A stretch of 24,000 nucleotides of DNA, from assembly GCF_004363215.1 (NCBI RefSeq), contig NZ_SNYS01000009.1, positions 70,047 through 94,046 on the forward strand, read 5' to 3'. This document shows, in pieces, positions 17,111 to 24,000 of this stretch. How positions within the stretch are numbered: the stretch's first letter is position 1; each line of letters starts with the position of its first letter. The position numbers were made by a program, and so were the translations under genes. The notes under the pieces were generated by a model. The model did no database searches, was not told where the DNA came from, and worked only from the letters and a program-made list of their open reading frames with translations. The DNA is from Methanimicrococcus blatticola (GTDB taxonomy: Archaea; Halobacteriota; Methanosarcinia; Methanosarcinales; Methanosarcinaceae).

Positions 17111-18598
17111 ATGACTATTCAAAAAAAGCAATTAATTTTCATTCTTATCATCCTCTTGGCCGTTATTGGTCTCGTTGGTTCAGGATGTCTTAAGAACAAT
17201 GATGACGATTCATCGAATGGAACAGGTACAGGCGATAATTCTCAAAACAGTACCCCCCCGAGTAATAACAATACGTCAAATAACACGACAAATAATACAA
17301 ACAACACAACCAACACGCCTCCCACTTCCGGATTACCTGATGTCGTTTACGCAACTCCGGGCAGCGGCGGCGGACGCGGCAACAGCGCACCTACTGAAAT
17401 CACTTCAAAAGTGGGCGACCAAACAGTCGTTGTTGAAGAGTACGAAGGAGATGAACCAAATACTTACAATGTTTACGTCTATGTACCCGCAGCAGATATT
17501 GTAACAGATGACATATTGAGTATTACATTTTTGAAATCCGTTGACTCTGTTGTTGTTTCAGCGGGGTCCGAGTCTGTTCTTAAAGATGCTGTTTCTAATG
17601 GTAAAAGTGTGACTGTTAAAGCCGCAGTGGATGAGCCTGGTTTTGGTACATGGGACACTCCAAATCTTGAAGTTAAAATTGGTGATGATACTTACTACGT
17701 TTCATTCTTTGCTTCATCTGTATGGAATTTTGATGTTGCAAAAGGCGGTCAAGTTTCTATTGTTGAAACAGTCTATCTCGATAGGGATGATAAAATTGTT
17801 ACAGTCAAAGGCTCTGCCAAGAAAACTGTTGTCGCTGAACCCGGAGAAACGCGTATTACGATAAAGGCCGACAAAGGCATGGCAGGAGCATTAGTTATTG
17901 AAGACAGCGAAGGCAACCCGGTTGAATGTCGTGCGGAAGGGTATACTTCCATATTCACAGCAGAAAGTAAAATCTATTCCGTCAAAACAACTTTTGAAAC
18001 AGCTGTCAAAGCAAGTCTCATAATTGATGGCAAAAATCAAAACATCATTGTGGATCAGAATTTGGTTGAAAATGGAAATATTTTCCTTTATGTTCCTGCA
18101 GAAGATATTCTTGGTGAAAAAATTCTTTTGAAATTTAACTCTAATATTACATCTTTAACTGTAAGGGATAATCTTATTTTTTCTGGTGATGTTGCCGGTG
18201 TTAGGATTATCGGTTTTAAAGATATAGAAGCTACCATGAGTGAGACTAATAAAGTAACCCAAAAAGGTGGCGTTAATCCGAATACAATCAGTTTTGTAGT
18301 TGAAACTGAAAACGGCACATATAATGTTTACTTGCTGGCTTCAGCTCTTCTTAACTTTGAGATTCCGGAAGGCTACACTTTAACAGTTGACAATGCATTA
18401 GATTTGGAGGCAGGCAAACATAGTTTTGTAACTGATGTTGGCAAACAGCATACTTTTAGTTTCACTCCCGATGGTGAGAATAAATTTGTTTTAATTGGCT
18501 CTTCTGATGGTGAATTTATTGAATCGACCCCTCATGAATATACGTTTTTAAAAAGTCAAATCTATACAATAACAATTGTTGAACGTATCGTTGGCTAA
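17111..18598 (+). CDS. Secreted lipobox protein, paralogue 2 (two modules)
   Basis: It has the signal MTIQKKQLIFILIILLAVIGLVGSGC, an N/T-rich sequon linker and the motif TPPTSGLPDVVYATPGSGGG. Two modules follow: VYVYVPAADI...TYYVSFFASSV and IFLYVPAEDI...TYNVYLLASAL. The ATG at 17111 is preferred over the GTG at 17099. Confidence 0.7.
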   Translation: MTIQKKQLIFILIILLAVIGLVGSGCLKNNDDDSSNGTGTGDNSQNSTPPSNNNTSNNTTNNTNNTTNTPPTSGLPDVVYATPGSGGGRGNSAPTEITSKVGDQTVVVEEYEGDEPNTYNVYVYVPAADIVTDDILSITFLKSVDSVVVSAGSESVLKDAVSNGKSVTVKAAVDEPGFGTWDTPNLEVKIGDDTYYVSFFASSVWNFDVAKGGQVSIVETVYLDRDDKIVTVKGSAKKTVVAEPGETRITIKADKGMAGALVIEDSEGNPVECRAEGYTSIFTAESKIYSVKTTFETAVKASLIIDGKNQNIIVDQNLVENGNIFLYVPAEDILGEKILLKFNSNITSLTVRDNLIFSGDVAGVRIIGFKDIEATMSETNKVTQKGGVNPNTISFVVETENGTYNVYLLASALLNFEIPEGYTLTVDNALDLEAGKHSFVTDVGKQHTFSFTPDGENKFVLIGSSDGEFIESTPHEYTFLKSQIYTITIVERIVG

Positions 18599-18609
18599 TC
18601 ACAAGAATT

Positions 18610-18651
18610 AAGAACGATCTGCCGTTCTTATTTCTTTTTTATTTTTTGTCT
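18610..18651 (+). terminator. Stem-loop plus oligo-T terminator after paralogue 2
   Basis: AAGAACG (18610-18616) and CGTTCTT (18623-18629) form a 7-bp stem with loop ATCTGC. This is followed by ATTTCTTTTTTATTTTTTGTCT, the same 17-mer found after rpoA2. Confidence 0.6.
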
Positions 18652-18815
18652 GTTTCTTTTTATCTCTCTTTTCAATTCTATATCATTTCTGAAAATCTAT
18701 ATATTCAATAAGCGAATTATTTATTTAATGCCCATTTTATAAAAATTTCAAAATTGGCTGTAACAGCTGATGCAAATGGGTTTTCGTTAATTCATTAATA
18801 TGGTGGTTTAGAAAT

Positions 18816-20291
18816 ATGATAACTCAAAAGAAGCAATTATTTTTAATTTTTATAATTCTCTTTGCCGCTATCGGAATTGTCGGGGCCGGGTGCCTGAAAT
18901 CCGGTGACAGCGCAGCAAATGATACGGTAAATAACACAACAAACAATACCACAAACGACACAACAAACAACAATACAAATAACAACACGAATTCCAATAA
19001 CAATACCAATAACAACACAACAAATAATACAACGAACAACACGCCTCCAACTTCCGGATTGCCTGATGTTGTTTATGCAACTCAGGGCAATGGCGGAGGC
19101 GGCAAAAGCAACAGCGCACCCTCCTCCCCCGCAACATTAAATGGGAAAGAGGTCGTCGTAGACCAGTCTCCGGCTGTTGATGGTGTTGTGAAATGGTATT
19201 TCTATATTCCTTCAACTGAAATAATAGACGAAACCATTGTATTGACAATGCCCGGAGTAATTACTGATTTTAATGTCGAAACCACAAGTTTAATTGCTCC
19301 CATTGGAACTACAGAAACGAATTCTTCTTACGACGGTAAAGTTGCAAACATTTATTTCTCAGGTGATACAACAACACCCTGGAATACGCCTGACTTAACG
19401 ATCTCAGTCGGTGATGTTGAGTATAAAATTTCTTTCTATGCAACAGCTGCATGGGAAGCTTCTGCAACAGCAGGCGGCTCTTTTGAATTTGTTGAACTCG
19501 CAAATCCGGCTGATGCCGGCCGTGTGTTTAATATCGCAAGAATTAGTGCCGGCGCAACAAAATATTTTGTTTCTGAAGAAAGAGTTATTGAGTTTACATT
19601 AACGCCCAATAACGGATATACAGGATTCTTGGAAGTGACTGATTCAAACGGCGACCCGGTTGATTTGACTAAAAAAGACTCTAATACATACGAAACTTCA
19701 GCAGTTGTTACATCTCAAACTTATACGGTGAATGCAATTTTTGAAAAGAAAGCGGTTGCAACAGATGAAGACGGTAATAAACTCGTTGTAGACCAAAATC
19801 TGGTCGCAAATCGGAATATTTTCATTTATGTTCCTTCCGGAGAAATTGAAGATGAAGATATTTCAGTAGATATCGGAAAATCCGTTAGCGGGGCTGTTGT
19901 AATTAACTCATATGCTGTTGCTTCTGCAACACCTTCCGGCAATATTGTCACTATTACAATGGCATCCCCAATTTCCGGTTTAGAAAATGGTGGAATACCG
20001 GCTCCCTCTACTGTTACAGTTGAGGCAACAGCATCCGACGGAACTGTTTATAATATCTTTGTTTTAAAATCGGCAGTGCTTAAAATTACTGTGCCAAGCG
20101 GAGTTACATTAATTTCGGATGGAGGATTGGATTTAACTTCCGGAACATATTATTTCGTGACTGATATTAATTCTAAAGACCTGTTCACAGCATCCGCGGG
20201 AACTGTCTATATTGACGGCACTCCAGCTACGTCTGATTACACTTTCAGTGAAAGTAAAACATATGTGTTGACAATTGAACCAACAACTTAA
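18816..20291 (+). CDS. Secreted lipobox protein, paralogue 3 (two modules)
   Basis: It has the signal MITQKKQLFLIFIILFAAIGIVGAGC, a longer N/T-rich linker and the motif TPPTSGLPDVVYATQGNGGGG. The modules are WYFYIPSTEI...EYKISFYATAA and IFIYVPSGEI...VYNIFVLKSAV. Confidence 0.7.
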   Translation: MITQKKQLFLIFIILFAAIGIVGAGCLKSGDSAANDTVNNTTNNTTNDTTNNNTNNNTNSNNNTNNNTTNNTTNNTPPTSGLPDVVYATQGNGGGGKSNSAPSSPATLNGKEVVVDQSPAVDGVVKWYFYIPSTEIIDETIVLTMPGVITDFNVETTSLIAPIGTTETNSSYDGKVANIYFSGDTTTPWNTPDLTISVGDVEYKISFYATAAWEASATAGGSFEFVELANPADAGRVFNIARISAGATKYFVSEERVIEFTLTPNNGYTGFLEVTDSNGDPVDLTKKDSNTYETSAVVTSQTYTVNAIFEKKAVATDEDGNKLVVDQNLVANRNIFIYVPSGEIEDEDISVDIGKSVSGAVVINSYAVASATPSGNIVTITMASPISGLENGGIPAPSTVTVEATASDGTVYNIFVLKSAVLKITVPSGVTLISDGGLDLTSGTYYFVTDINSKDLFTASAGTVYIDGTPATSDYTFSESKTYVLTIEPTT

Positions 20292-20311
20292 ATTTTCAAT
20301 TAATTTTTCAT

Positions 20312-20350
20312 AGAATGGTTTTCATACCATTCTTTTTTTCTTTTTTTCAT
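20312..20350 (+). terminator. Stem-loop plus oligo-T terminator after paralogue 3
   Basis: AGAATGGT (20312-20319) and ACCATTCT (20326-20333) form a perfect 8-bp stem with loop TTTCAT. This is followed by TTTTTTCTTTTTTT. Confidence 0.65.
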
Positions 20351-20739
20351 GGATGAATAATTACTTAGTTGTCTCCTCATGCTTCTTATTTTTTTGAGAT
20401 TACATCATGTTCTTAAAACCATTAGGTCTGTATATTTTATATTTTTCTTGTTTAACTCAATCGATCAAATATTTTATTACAGTCCATCAACCATTCAACT
20501 TATATACTTTTTTTTATTTTGCCTTAGTTATGCTACCAATTTATTGATACTTTCACGGTATCAATTTGATGTTCGTTATTTTGTTGGTTTAATAGGGTCT
20601 TTGAAAAATGACGGGGTTGAATTATTTTTCAATATCCTTGTGAATCTTTAAGATATGGACAGAGTGTACGGTTTGTAATTGTCTTTCCTTTATATTATGG
20701 AAAACAAAATTATTGTTCGAAAATCCATAGAGGGGTTTT

Positions 20740-23700
20740 ATGAAATTTACACGAAATCAAATAATTATGATTGTTGCAATCGCCATTATTATTATCGGCG
20801 CCATTGCAGTTATGTTTGTCTATTATGGCAACAATGACAATGATTCACCTTCCGGGACCGGTTTCGGTCAGGATTTGAATCCGACTGAAACAAATGATTC
20901 TAACAAATCGGGACCCGATGATTCTAATGAACCTGAAAGTCCGAAATCTCCATCATCGGTCGGCGATGTTATCATTGCCACTCCCGGTAAAGGTGGCGGA
21001 AATAACAGACCTGCTTACAATATTACACTTAATACAATTGCAAACGGCGGAACAACTCCTGATTACGATGTGACTTACTACAAAGGAACAATTCCTGTTC
21101 ACACCGATACCAATAAAGTTCCTGTTCCGGTTCATCCGGATTCTTTGACTTTTGCAGGTTGGTATAAAGACCCTGATTATGGATCTGATAAATGGAACGA
21201 TGGTGTTGATGCTTTAACCGCACCTATTACTCTTTACGCCAAATGGGAAATGCCGATCACATTGGATGCCTCTAAATACGGCGGTAACGGCGGTAATCAG
21301 GTTTTAACTACATTTTTGACCGGCGATACTCTTGCAGATCACCTTTATGATTCCAATGACGTTCTTGTCTTTACTGATCTTAAAAAGCACACAAACGTTG
21401 ATCCTACGGGAACAACATCCGGAAAATTCAACGGCTGGTATCAGTCTTCTGATTTCGGTACATCATTCTCTGCAAGCGATATTATTCTTGAAGCAGACGA
21501 AGCCTCAACACGAATTACACGCACACCTAGCGGAAATACTCTTTATGCACGCTGGAACTTGGAAATGTCTGTTTACGGTAACCAGTTCGGTGGCGCAGGA
21601 ACAGCTGCAGAAACGATTTCTAAGCTTACGGGCGATACTGTTTCGTTTACCGATGTTTTGGGAACAAATGATGTCAAAACTCACACTTCATTATCATCAA
21701 TTGATGCAAATCTTTGGCAGGGCACAGGCAGTCCGGTAACATTTAATAATGCTTGGATTACTGCAACAAAATTAGATAATGATCAAGTCTTCTATACACG
21801 CTGGGAAGTCCCTGTTGCATGGGATGCTACAAAATATGGTGGCACCGGCAGTTCTAGTGCTTCCGGTAACAAGGTTTTAACCGGTGACCTCTGGAGCTCA
21901 GGTCTTCCTTCCAGTTCACCCGCACACACCAGTTTAACTTCCTTTGCCAACTGGTACACTTCTTCTGACAGTGGTGTTACTTTTGCTACATTACCTTATA
22001 CAGATGCAAAACTTAGTGCCGAACCTGCTACAGTGTATGCACGCTGGGAAGTCCCTGTTGCATGGGATGCCACAAAATATGGTGGCACCGGCAGTTCTAG
22101 TGCTTCCGGTAACAAGGTTTTAACCGGTGACCTTTGGAGCTCAGGTCTTCCTTCCAGTTCACCCGCACACACCAGTTTAACTTCCTTTGCCAACTGGTAC
22201 ACTTCTTCTGACAGTGGTGTTACTTTTGCTACATTACCTTATACAGATGCAAAACTTAGTGCCGAACCTGCTACAGTGTATGCACGCTGGCAAGCCCCTG
22301 TTACCTGGAAAGTTAATCACTTCGGCGGCAGCACTGTTGATTATACACAAAGTAATTTGTTAACCGGTGACACGCTTGCACTTCCGACCTTTTCAAATGC
22401 TGTTCATTCAAAAGGTCTTACCTTTGACGGCTGGTACACCGCTGCTGATGGTGGTATAAAGCATACTTCTGTTACAACTATTTCCGGTTTGACAGATGCA
22501 AGCGGTAAATTAATTGATTCTTCAACCGCAGCCGCTTACGCACGCTGGCAAGCCCCTGTTACCTGGCAAGTTAATCATTTTGGCGGTAGCTATAATATTG
22601 TAGAATCCTCTAAGTTAACCGGTGATGTTCTTACACTCCCTGCTACGGCAACTCATAGTCAAAATCTTATATTTGATGGTTGGTACACTGCTGCAGATAG
22701 TGGAACAAAATTAACTGATGCCAAAAGTATTTCAGATTTGACTGACGGCGACGGTAAACTGATTGGTTCTTCAACCACAGCTGCTTACGCACGCTGGAAA
22801 GCACATGCCAACTATTACTTCAACGCCCCGACATCGCCGGCATATTCCGGTACTGCATCAACATACTTCACGGATTATGCAACATACCTTACAGGTTCTA
22901 AAATTTCTTCACTTCCTACGTATACAGATGTCATCAGTAATTGGTCTGCTAATGTTTCTAATGTTGACAGTTCAGCAGTTCTTAAAGACGACCAGAATAA
23001 AAAATGGACTTTCGAAGGATGGTCTGAATCAGACACAGGTGCTGTTGTTTCAACAACTTCTGCTGTTGACAAAAATATGACCTTGTATGCAAACTGGACT
23101 CTTCACAATGCAATTAAAGTGAATGATAATACCGGTGATTCGGCACCATACACTTTTAAAACGGTTTATGCAACGACCACGTCAAATCTGACTTACAATA
23201 TCTCTGAAGCCGGTATTACTACGACTCAGATTAATACTGATTTAGCAGGCTGGACAAAGTTGAAAAGTGATACTTCATCTCTTTCTGATATAACATTCAG
23301 TTCGCCGAATATGGTATTTACGACTGCTCCGTCTAATAATGCCGAATATCATACAAGATGGAATTACACTCTCATTAAAAATGCAGATTACGTAGGTCCT
23401 GCTGATGTAACGCAGAAGGTTTTGACAGATGCTCCGGTTTCATTAACTAATCCATTTGCACGATCCGGTTATGATTTCAAAGGATGGAATAATAGCTCTG
23501 GTGGCACAGGTATTGATTATCTTGCTACAGCAACTCCGTCTTTCAAAGAACTTAAAATATTGTATGCTGTTTGGGACCCGGTCGCTGTTACTTTGACTTA
23601 TGACTTCAATGGAGGTTCAGGTACTATCGCCCCCGGCTCGGCTACGTATGGTTCACCGGTGACTTTATCGGATGGATCAGGGTTCACAAAACTCGGTCAT

Positions 23701-24000
23701 ACGGTAACTAGCTGGAATACTTATGCAGATGGTACAGGTACTTCCTACAGTCTGGGTCCAGCCATTACAACATCTGCATTTACGGATAATACAAGATTGT
23801 ATGCTATCTGGGAACCTGCCACTGTTACTTTGACATTCGATGCCGGTACCGGAACCGCGAATCCTCTTTTTACTAAGGATGCAACCTATGGGTCTGCTGT
23901 GGTTTTACCGGAGCCCGGGGACTCCGGAATAAATAACGTTTACTCAAAGGTCGGCTATAATTTAAGCGGTTGGAGTTCTGCTCCAAACGGCGGCGGTATT
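20740..24000 (+). CDS. Giant surface adhesin-like protein made of Listeria-Bacteroides (Flg_new / InlB B-repeat-type) repeats; 3'-partial, continuing beyond the window
   Basis: This gene is not in the ORF track. I translated frame 1 from the ATG at 20740 (GAGGGG ribosome-binding site 5 nt upstream) to 24000 and found 1087 codons with no stop. It has an N-terminal TM anchor (IIMIVAIAIIIIGAIAVMFVYY). At least 12 units of about 80 aa follow, of the form ...GGxxxx...G[YF]xFxGW[YN]...xLYA[RKI]W. Confidence 0.85.
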   Translation, partial: MKFTRNQIIMIVAIAIIIIGAIAVMFVYYGNNDNDSPSGTGFGQDLNPTETNDSNKSGPDDSNEPESPKSPSSVGDVIIATPGKGGGNNRPAYNITLNTIANGGTTPDYDVTYYKGTIPVHTDTNKVPVPVHPDSLTFAGWYKDPDYGSDKWNDGVDALTAPITLYAKWEMPITLDASKYGGNGGNQVLTTFLTGDTLADHLYDSNDVLVFTDLKKHTNVDPTGTTSGKFNGWYQSSDFGTSFSASDIILEADEASTRITRTPSGNTLYARWNLEMSVYGNQFGGAGTAAETISKLTGDTVSFTDVLGTNDVKTHTSLSSIDANLWQGTGSPVTFNNAWITATKLDNDQVFYTRWEVPVAWDATKYGGTGSSSASGNKVLTGDLWSSGLPSSSPAHTSLTSFANWYTSSDSGVTFATLPYTDAKLSAEPATVYARWEVPVAWDATKYGGTGSSSASGNKVLTGDLWSSGLPSSSPAHTSLTSFANWYTSSDSGVTFATLPYTDAKLSAEPATVYARWQAPVTWKVNHFGGSTVDYTQSNLLTGDTLALPTFSNAVHSKGLTFDGWYTAADGGIKHTSVTTISGLTDASGKLIDSSTAAAYARWQAPVTWQVNHFGGSYNIVESSKLTGDVLTLPATATHSQNLIFDGWYTAADSGTKLTDAKSISDLTDGDGKLIGSSTTAAYARWKAHANYYFNAPTSPAYSGTASTYFTDYATYLTGSKISSLPTYTDVISNWSANVSNVDSSAVLKDDQNKKWTFEGWSESDTGAVVSTTSAVDKNMTLYANWTLHNAIKVNDNTGDSAPYTFKTVYATTTSNLTYNISEAGITTTQINTDLAGWTKLKSDTSSLSDITFSSPNMVFTTAPSNNAEYHTRWNYTLIKNADYVGPADVTQKVLTDAPVSLTNPFARSGYDFKGWNNSSGGTGIDYLATATPSFKELKILYAVWDPVAVTLTYDFNGGSGTIAPGSATYGSPVTLSDGSGFTKLGHTVTSWNTYADGTGTSYSLGPAITTSAFTDNTRLYAIWEPATVTLTFDAGTGTANPLFTKDATYGSAVVLPEPGDSGINNVYSKVGYNLSGWSSAPNGGGI
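21801..22286 (+). repeat. Near-perfect in-frame tandem duplication, 2 x 243 bp (81 aa), inside the adhesin gene
   Basis: Copy 1 (21801-22043) and copy 2 (22044-22286) differ at only two positions: 21828 T vs 22071 C, and 21891 C vs 22134 T. Both changes are synonymous (Ala GCT/GCC, Leu CTC/CTT). Confidence 0.95.

Follow-up and report, generated by a model that had tools for sequence, protein, structure and literature searches.

How membrane-anchored proteins get past a tight archaeal S-layer is largely unknown, and only the signals of their anchors have been described, namely signal peptides, the lipobox, and PGF-CTERM. PGF-CTERM, the archaeosortase A signal (TIGR04126, PF18204), is a short conserved element found at the C-terminus of surface proteins with a membrane anchor and a low-complexity stalk, where it abuts the transmembrane (TM) helix and is cleaved by an enzyme dedicated to it. 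Here we describe a short element of surface proteins from the same organisms that resembles PGF-CTERM in this setting but lies near the N-terminus. It was noticed in a stretch of 24,000 nucleotides from Methanimicrococcus blatticola (NZ_SNYS01000009.1, positions 70,047 to 94,046; this whole stretch is called the window), in which three adjacent genes, par2, par3, and a gene for a giant protein with Flg_new repeats, encode the motif D-V-[VI]-x-A-T-x-G-x-G-G-G between an N-terminal linker, or stalk, and the first folded domain, or cargo. The earlier note on this DNA, made by a model from the letters alone, held the motif to be unlike PGF-CTERM, and this is borne out: the motif stands 30–66 residues from the anchor, at the cargo end of the stalk, and contains no PGF.

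The lipobox is a feature of the anchor and not of the motif. In par2 and par3 the lipobox-like string reads G-S-G-C-L and G-A-G-C-L, with a small residue at position −1 and a non-canonical one at −3. A lipobox-like Cys is found in the anchors of 17 of the 31 non-redundant motif proteins considered below and in none of the other 14; it is separated from the motif by the whole linker, the motif is also found behind plain TM anchors, and most lipobox proteins of the window genome lack it. The lipoprotein export signal of Bacteroidota, a short motif just past the lipidated Cys that is proposed to decide surface exposure, resembles the motif as a short post-anchor element. An LPXTG-type sortase signal was considered and rejected, as the motif is N-terminal, reads L-P-D-V-V and not L-P-x-T-G, and gave only a sub-threshold NCBIfam match over the signal and linker region. 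The tile of the Methanosarcina S-layer (MA0829 family, DUF1608) is tethered by an acidic low-complexity stalk that leads to a C-terminal TM helix and falls within the length range of the motif stalks; DUF1608 proteins differ from the motif proteins in having neither the motif nor the mirror-image form of it described below. The lattice of this S-layer has been reported to have small, negatively charged pores. Members of the arthropod-gut clade have an S-layer of MA0829 (DUF1608) homologues, lack methanochondroitin and archaella, and probably attach to the gut wall (PMC11362671). M. blatticola has gained adhesin-like proteins with Flg_new and GLUG repeats, in a report that does not mention the motif (Thomas et al., PMC9723798).

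No entry of Pfam, NCBIfam, or the PDB sequences covers the N-terminal motif or its mirror form, and neither is mentioned in papers on Methanimicrococcus and Methanolapillus or on Methanosarcina surfaces. The motif is a conserved, apparently undescribed linear motif of anchored surface proteins; the earlier note, too, was aware of no description of it.

The motif at the stalk-cargo junction

All three genes are read on the + strand. par2 (17099–18598, with a likely start ATG at 17111) encodes a protein of 495 amino acids, a sequence identical to one already on record, that is predicted to be N-terminally lipid-anchored, all-β, and adhesin-like. Its signal and lipobox-like anchor (17111–17191) are followed by a stalk of 47 residues (17192–17332), rich in N, T, S, and D and with many N-x-S/T sequons, and then by the motif core L-P-D-V-V-Y-A-T-P-G-S-G-G-G-R (17333–17377). 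The surrounding block, 17315–17392, translates to TPPTSGLPDVVYATPGSGGGRGNSAP. The paralogous gene par3 (18816–20291, 491 amino acids), which is 31–37% identical to par2 outside the leader, carries the core L-P-D-V-V-Y-A-T-Q-G-N-G-G-G-G-K at 19059–19106, within a block (19041–19121) that translates to TPPTSGLPDVVYATQGNGGGGKSNSAP. Both blocks match exactly, in position and in sequence, the strings quoted in the earlier note.

The third gene (20740–24000), which extends beyond the window end, encodes an adhesin-like giant of 1195 amino acids with Flg_new (Listeria-Bacteroides) repeats (Pfam match E = 8.6e-36). Its N-terminal anchor is a TM segment that lacks Cys, and it is unanchored at the C-terminus, with neither a TM helix nor PGF. 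Behind a linker of 41 residues rich in D, S, N, P, and E (20839–20961) lies the core G-D-V-I-I-A-T-P-G-K-G-G-G (20962–21000, residues 75–87). The first Flg_new domain begins at residue 93, 5 residues past the motif, which therefore falls outside the repeat profile (PF09479). Here the coordinates first given, 20953–21015, translate to SSVGDVIIATPGKGGGNNRPA and fall a few residues short of the quoted 24-residue string, which spans about 20947–21018.

The layout is common to all three proteins and runs from an N-terminal hydrophobic anchor through a low-complexity linker and the motif to the first folded domain, so that translation and architecture alike uphold the placement of the motif at the anchor-facing end of the cargo. 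None of the three ends in a TM helix, which sets them apart from PGF-CTERM proteins, and the PGF-CTERM models found no match in the four surface proteins of the window (NCBIfam, E ≤ 1; Pfam, E ≤ 0.01). In an AlphaFold model of par2 (residues 70–499), based on an alignment of three sequences and with a mean predicted local distance difference test score (pLDDT) of 65.9, the first 31 residues, including the motif, have pLDDT values below 50 and no secondary structure. The remainder is a β-sandwich in an all-β model that Foldseek relates to tandem immunoglobulin-like (Ig-like) folds of Gram-positive pilins and adhesins. The model offers weak evidence that the motif is neither docked onto the par2 cargo fold nor part of it. 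The N-terminus of the Flg_new protein, modelled without an alignment, gave no usable model (pLDDT 32.8).

Aligned at fixed spacing, 31 non-redundant instances of the motif give the consensus [ST]-[SG]-[LF]-P-[DP]-[VT]-[IV]-x-[AV]-[NT]-x-x-x-G-G-G-[GS]-[SG], in which a constant gap of three residues precedes a Gly run whose three positions are Gly in 30, 27, and 27 of the 31 instances. The motif starts 66–106 residues from the N-terminus (median 81, n = 31), and in 23 of the 31 a Lys or Arg stands no more than 12 residues from the Gly run. An N-x-S/T sequon is formed by 11 of the 19 motifs that have Asn at the [NT] position, and T-P is found in 7 of the 11 that have Thr.

The proteins behind the motif, at least 31 distinct ones, belong to at least eight mutually unrelated cargo families in two genera, in keeping with the description of the motif as a module common to otherwise different proteins. 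Among the cargoes are the all-β (Ig-like) par2/par3 family, the Flg_new repeats, GLUG proteins, a BspA-type leucine-rich repeat protein, two families with a lipocalin-like start I-V-G-x-W, one that starts I-Y-T-V-E-D-L-Y-N-V-R-N-N-L, and several without a Pfam match; the Pfam families found on the cargoes are Flg_new, GLUG, and LRR_5. Anchors and cargoes are combined in more than one way, with one cargo family behind two anchor types and one anchor type before two cargo families; the lipocalin-like cargo, for example, follows both lipobox-type and Y-Y-S-G-type leaders. The motif subtype tracks the cargo family across both genera. Every carrier is an N-anchored exported protein and none is cytoplasmic, so the motif is not found equally often in cytoplasmic proteins, a distribution that would have spoken against it.

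A fourth surface-protein gene of the window, paralogue 1 (16145–16924, +), serves as an internal negative control. It encodes a one-module lipobox surface protein with a signal of the same type as those of par2 and par3 and a short linker, and no junction motif was found in it by translation, regular expression, or profile scan, as the earlier note had said. Its orthologue in another Methanimicrococcus genome (G128; L011) likewise lacks the motif. In that genome paralogue 1 is followed directly by the Flg_new gene, with par2/par3 absent between them. The window genes (16145–24000) occupy a syntenic slot between a KaiC-like gene and a gene whose product starts M-T-T-R-K-T-S (compared with loci L005, L011, and L021–L023). 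The number of surface-protein genes in this slot ranges from one to four between Methanimicrococcus species, which suggests a hot spot of adhesin gain and loss.

Distribution and conservation of the N-terminal motif

The window lies on contig C5 of an assembly of 13 contigs, designated G000 here. A six-frame regular-expression search of this whole 1.78-Mb genome found the strict pattern only in par2, par3, and the Flg_new gene; by a hand estimate, its chance expectation is far below one per proteome. A loosened pattern added one match, internal to a Gly-rich protein, and a reversed control pattern gave one match. At the DNA level, the strict degenerate pattern recovered the three window sites alone from 284 genomes of the order. 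The strict pattern is restricted to one genome because the relatives have Asn where the window genome has Thr: the par2/par3 homologues of seven other Methanimicrococcus genomes read L-P-D-V-V-[YV]-A-N-[QH]-x-x-G-G-G-G in the same place, and unrelated proteins of Methanolapillus, which we take to be the sister genus g11 (three genomes), read [LP]-[PV]-[VI]-I-x-[AV]-[NT]-[PQ]-x-x-G-G-G.

A profile of 28 columns built from 16 motif segments (A2) was searched across 177 Methanosarcinaceae genomes. In the window genes it scored 42.6 bits on par2, 41.7 on par3, and 38.6 on the Flg_new protein; a position matrix trained on other genomes gave 40.2 bits for par2 and 36.5 for par3. In Methanimicrococcus and Methanolapillus together, 34 sites outscore the best site of any of the other 14 genera. 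E is below 1e-3 for 26 of them, and the top match outside the two genera (E = 0.03) falls in an open reading frame (ORF) of 33 residues. Sixteen of the 34 are the training sequences themselves, and the remainder are new sites in other cargo families. Besides the window genome itself, 6 of 10 Methanimicrococcus genomes and all three Methanolapillus genomes have matches. The remaining 14 Methanosarcinaceae genera and the approximately 350 other Halobacteriota genomes that were searched yielded no instance of the motif, and the profile search of 401 genomes sampled across the phylum gave only matches at noise level. When 1.84 billion representative proteins were searched with a strict profile built from the window's three sequences, only those three reached E ≤ 1e-3, in a library of a size at which looser profile variants cannot attain significance. 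A pattern scan of metagenomes gave 11 matches, all of them unrelated high-GC look-alikes. When either the motif region or the cargo region of par2 was used as the query for homologues, the only returns were par2 itself and one Logan orthologue that is 70–80% identical; a single-protein search for related loci gave none. These searches show the N-terminal motif to be, as judged from the genomes covered, confined to Methanimicrococcus and Methanolapillus, the arthropod-gut clade of the Methanosarcinaceae; a restriction to three genes, which the earlier note had named as a reason to dismiss its own reading, is not what the clade-wide search returned. Several genomes of this clade are incomplete metagenome-assembled genomes (MAGs) with adhesin genes at contig ends, and in the window genome many Flg_new repeat genes are truncated where contigs end (C2:1, C4:1, C9, C11, and C13). 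This assembly breaks within adhesin repeats, and the counts of motif genes are therefore lower bounds.

Two motif loci have features of their own. In Methanolapillus, a 20-kb island (L066, G162:C15:6500-26400) holds at least nine genes on the same strand, all with an N-terminal anchor and linker; seven match the motif pattern and two have a variant form, and the cargo of most of them has the I-Y-T-V-E-D-L-Y-N-V-R-N-N-L start. A contig scan for L-P-D-V-V-x-A-N...G returned, among the matches listed, mostly one conserved Burkholderiales gene, together with a locus of Methanimicrococcus hongohii Hf6. In this species (L117:5591-7999), a motif protein with the cargo start W-L-A-S-V-S-N-P-F-I-G-T-W occupies an ORF of 346 amino acids, behind which lies a second, distinct ORF of at least 446. 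In three other species (L055, L057, and L061) the same protein is a single chain of 998–1114 amino acids, and a Pfam scan of the first of these found the GLUG motif; the two-ORF arrangement is either a split gene or a fusion.

Several look-alikes were set aside. FG-GAP/VCBS repeats (F-P-D-V-V-V-A-N-x-G-x-G-G-G), short-chain dehydrogenases, and the G-G-G-T-G-T-G of FtsZ are chance resemblances in cytoplasmic or repeat contexts, in unrelated and mostly high-GC organisms, with no anchor-linker architecture. Some Halobacteriota members of the MacB/FtsX permeases (PF12704 and PF02687) have D-[IV]-I-x-V-T-P-x-[ST]-G-G-G-G past TM1 (L070, L072, and L075), which is near the Methanolapillus form V-I-x-V-T-P-S-x-G-G-G. 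The strand of these permeases, unlike the motif, belongs to a folded periplasmic domain, to which a short helix leads, and their matches, at E = 6e-4 to 5e-3 per genome, are within chance for 401 genomes. PF12704 and PF02687 found no match in the four window proteins or in nine other motif proteins. As the six MacB-type permeases of the window genome lack the motif and the outside matches are within chance, descent from MacB permeases was rejected, leaving a look-alike and not a relative.

The earlier note had also remarked on the similarity of the par2 and par3 blocks in nucleotides and suggested a check for gene conversion. Over the motif block the two genes agree in 82% of nucleotides and 85% of amino acids, against 48% and 31% over the rest, as had been noticed. 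The proportion of synonymous differences is 0.40 in the block and 0.65 outside it, and conserved residues use identical codons at 15 of 22 positions in the motif and 51 of 113 elsewhere (Fisher p = 0.06). Gene conversion is at most weakly indicated, as a possible faint trace of an old event. Between par2 and the Flg_new gene, nine motif residues are held in common and five of the nine codons differ. A par2 orthologue from another sample, with identities of 80% over the motif region and 70% over the cargo, has an entirely different linker; it retains the motif, with A-N-Q in place of A-T-P. The motif is conserved at the peptide level and not at the codon level, because the codons of par2 and the Flg_new gene differ and because the linker of this orthologue has changed while the motif was kept. 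In an alignment of 11 members of the par2/par3 family, at approximately 30% identity, the nearly invariant columns cluster only at the lipobox, where G-x-G-C-L is nearly invariant, and at S-x-L-P-D-V-V-x-A...G-x-G. These comparisons show a motif that is maintained by purifying selection on many unrelated adhesin-like cargoes.

A mirror-image motif in C-terminally anchored proteins

C-terminally anchored surface proteins of the window genome carry G-G-G-S-G-[TFI]-G-x-[AG]-x-[VI]-[VI]-[DEN] directly past their last folded domain, followed by a low-complexity linker, a TM helix (or PGF-CTERM), and a basic tail. Of 12 regular-expression matches in this genome, ten lie 61–95 residues from a C-terminus and the other two are the FtsZ signature; eight of the ten have a linker and a C-terminal TM helix by automatic check, visual inspection adds a ninth, and the tenth (C2:86877) has no TM helix at its end. 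Examples at the cargo-stalk junction are C5:30223-30285(−), C6:10370-10426(+), C6:12806-12865(+), C7:64435-64494(+), and C7:81804-81866(−). Read outward from the membrane, the C-terminal form, [DEN]-V-V-x-A-x-G-T-G-S-G-G-G-(K/R)-cargo, has the same order of elements as the N-terminal form, D-V-V-x-A-[NT]-x-x-x-G-G-G-G-(K/R)-cargo.

This relation was noticed post hoc and then tested with a position matrix, made from 28 N-terminal motifs of other genomes and fixed before all ORFs of the window genome were scanned at a threshold of 14 bits. Read forward, the matrix found par2, par3, and one off-target site at or above the threshold, and the Flg_new site ranked seventh at 11.8 bits. Applied to reversed sequences, it found ten windows at or above 14 bits in eight sites, six of which are C-junction motifs, 53–82 residues from a C-terminus and scoring 15–19 bits. 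The mirror relation is supported by the matrix and by position, though not by every measure.

A profile built from 12 mirror-motif segments (A7) found the mirror motif in all ten Methanimicrococcus genomes (between 1 and 14 matches per genome, and at least four in nine), in all three Methanolapillus genomes (1–2 each), and in eight other Methanosarcinaceae genera, where it occurs on CobN-like extracellular proteins, DUF4430 proteins with a PGF-CTERM end, GLUG proteins, and β-helix proteins. The 349 sampled genomes of the phylum that belong to other families yielded none. The mirror motif is the older, Methanosarcinaceae-wide counterpart of the N-terminal motif. Some mirror-motif proteins end in PGF-CTERM, and the two elements are distinct in the C-anchored proteins.

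Two further proteins of the window genome were observed in the course of these scans. A Gly-rich surface protein of 1140 amino acids, possibly a β-helix (G000:C5:186578-189997, −), has the mirror motif and a TM anchor; its internal A-T-G-G-K-G-G-G-G-G-G strings are the sole off-target match to the N-terminal motif. The other Flg_new proteins of this genome have no N-terminal motif and possess cleavable signal peptides and C-terminal anchors, including PGF-CTERM. One of approximately 150 amino acids (G000:C2:155748-156251, +), with a single Flg_new domain, a cleavable signal peptide, and a clear PGF-CTERM-like tail P-G-F-G-A-A-F...R-R-K-K-Y, shows the alternative anchoring route in use in the same genome.

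Interpretation of the motif pair

Stalk lengths are alike in both topologies and match those of S-layer tethers. The N-terminal linkers have 30–66 residues (median 47, n = 31) and the C-terminal ones 28–55 (median 42); the tethers of the DUF1608 proteins of the window genome have 42–50, and the acidic tether of the Methanosarcina S-layer protein has approximately 60 (PMC3361143, PMC12369344). The S-layer proteins themselves were rejected as carriers, as neither junction motif was found in the DUF1608 proteins of the window genome. Tentatively, and at something short of an even chance, we favor the reading that the motif is a disordered junction collar at the far end of the stalk of membrane-anchored surface proteins other than those of the S-layer, held at the height of the S-layer. 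The motif sits directly before the folded cargo, in the order of TM or lipobox anchor, linker, motif (often followed by Lys or Arg), and cargo, and both forms would present outward the same series: an acidic or polar residue, two β-branched hydrophobic residues, Ala, four to five small residues, the Gly run, a basic residue, and the cargo. The stalk would place this series at a chain distance equal to the base of the DUF1608 lattice. The short acidic-hydrophobic strand would then lie at or under the S-layer on its membrane side; on the cargo side, the thin Gly run and its basic residue would cross the lattice or hinge at it, leaving the cargo displayed outside. A reversed peptide cannot fit an active site that is specific for chain direction and yet, on an extended chain, shows the same series of side chains; therefore, the motif pair probably works through its position in the envelope and not as a direction-specific enzyme site. 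A broader version, which we consider rather unlikely as it stands, is that the mirror-image pair is a chain-direction-independent address, with one form for N-anchored and one for C-anchored proteins, that places the stalk-cargo junction of every surface protein other than those of the S-layer at the DUF1608 lattice or threads it through, and that the gut clade invented the N-terminal form when it acquired N-anchored adhesins.

Other explanations account for parts of these observations. The motif could be a passive hinge or insulator without a partner, in which a mini-strand, a turn, and a Gly hinge separate a disordered, possibly glycosylated stalk from a cargo that folds and swivels freely; it would then recur because it suits any domain. 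The composition of [NT]-[PQ] followed by glycines is typical of a turn and hinge, at least eight unrelated folds follow the motif, and it is undocked in the par2 model; the similar strand-T-P-Gly-loop past TM1 of some archaeal MacB-type permeases suggests a generic solution behind a membrane stalk, and many stalked lipoproteins manage without the motif. A hinge would not, however, need the conserved L-P-D-V-V-x-A strand at fixed spacing, which would not stay invariant while the cargo falls to approximately 30% identity, and it leaves unexplained both the mirrored order and the restriction of the two motifs, in the genomes searched, to Methanosarcinaceae. We regard a mere hinge as unlikely. Somewhat similar in standing, and in our judgment a little harder still to credit, is the idea that an extracellular enzyme recognizes the motif, be it a maturation or shedding protease at the Gly run, an attaching transpeptidase, or a glycosyltransferase acting on the Asn or Thr. 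Short, disordered, strongly conserved linear motifs in exported proteins fit such a role, a Gly run followed by Lys or Arg (23 of 31) resembles a protease site, 11 of the 19 Asn-type motifs form a sequon and 7 of the 11 Thr-type ones read T-P, and a poly-Gly-specific enzyme could handle both topologies, the Gly run being neutral to direction. It is the strand part, beyond the Gly run, that is also mirrored, and a direction-specific active site would not read it reversed. Moreover, Asn and Thr are exchanged between close orthologues (A-T-P in par2 and A-N-Q in the 80%-identical one), 8 of the 19 Asn-type motifs form no sequon, the motif lies 30–66 residues off the membrane, unlike the sites of sortases, archaeosortases, and signal peptidases, and no candidate enzyme with a matching phyletic pattern was identified, although no dedicated phyletic-profile hunt was made. 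In the window genome, 13 of 16 proteins with an anchor and a linker lack the motif, which is therefore not needed for export or lipidation. The mirror form argues against a chain-direction-specific enzyme and for a positional, structural role. The sorting or processing role suggested in the earlier note is not supported.

Common descent without function fares worst. The motif might be a leftover of a leader cassette spread by duplication, recombination, and gene conversion, or even the recombination junction itself; the three window genes are neighbors that share the derived A-T-[PQ]-G variant where orthologues elsewhere have A-N-Q, synonymous differences between par2 and par3 are fewer in the block, and leaders and cargoes have been shuffled, as in the lipocalin-like proteins with their two leader types. 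Against this, codon identity within the motif is not significantly raised, par2 and the Flg_new gene differ in most of the conserved codons, the linker is hypervariable even between 80%-identical orthologues in which the motif is retained, and the motif subtypes travel with the cargo families over two genera. The mirror motif of the C-anchored proteins cannot have come from recombination, because inversion of DNA does not reverse a peptide. We consider a functionless leftover highly improbable.

Several observations weigh against a collar at the S-layer. A role at the S-layer is something we infer from position and symmetry alone, and a Gly run of 3–6 residues is by itself too short to span a lattice several nanometers thick. 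Just three of the 16 anchor-plus-linker proteins of the window genome have the motif, the four Methanimicrococcus MAGs without a match to it indicate that it is dispensable for many proteins, and the Flg_new orthologue in G128 retains nothing of it but the Gly run, in the degenerate form S-I-S-R-S-G-G-G-G. The predicted disorder of the motif, coming from a model on a shallow alignment, is weak evidence. The mirror is also inexact, with the Gly run offset by one residue and no exact counterpart for the [NT] beside the Ala. A single unified regular expression, which placed three of its six forward matches at N-junctions and seven of its 11 reversed matches at C-junctions, was written after both motifs had been seen, and HMMER with composition correction gave no significant match on the reversed ORFs (best E = 0.5).

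If the broader version is true, the motif pair would represent a previously unrecognized rule for the display of adhesins outside a closed archaeal protein shell. The analysis supplies a sequence-level marker of the stalk-cargo junction that is common to dozens of unrelated adhesin-like proteins, and the known range of the motifs coincides with the family that builds DUF1608 S-layers. Whether the junction motif controls passage through the S-layer or docking at it is a testable question in the tractable Methanosarcina. As a practical rule, the motif may guide the annotation and engineering of surface display in methanogens, and it may flag the displayed adhesins of methanogens that live in insect guts.

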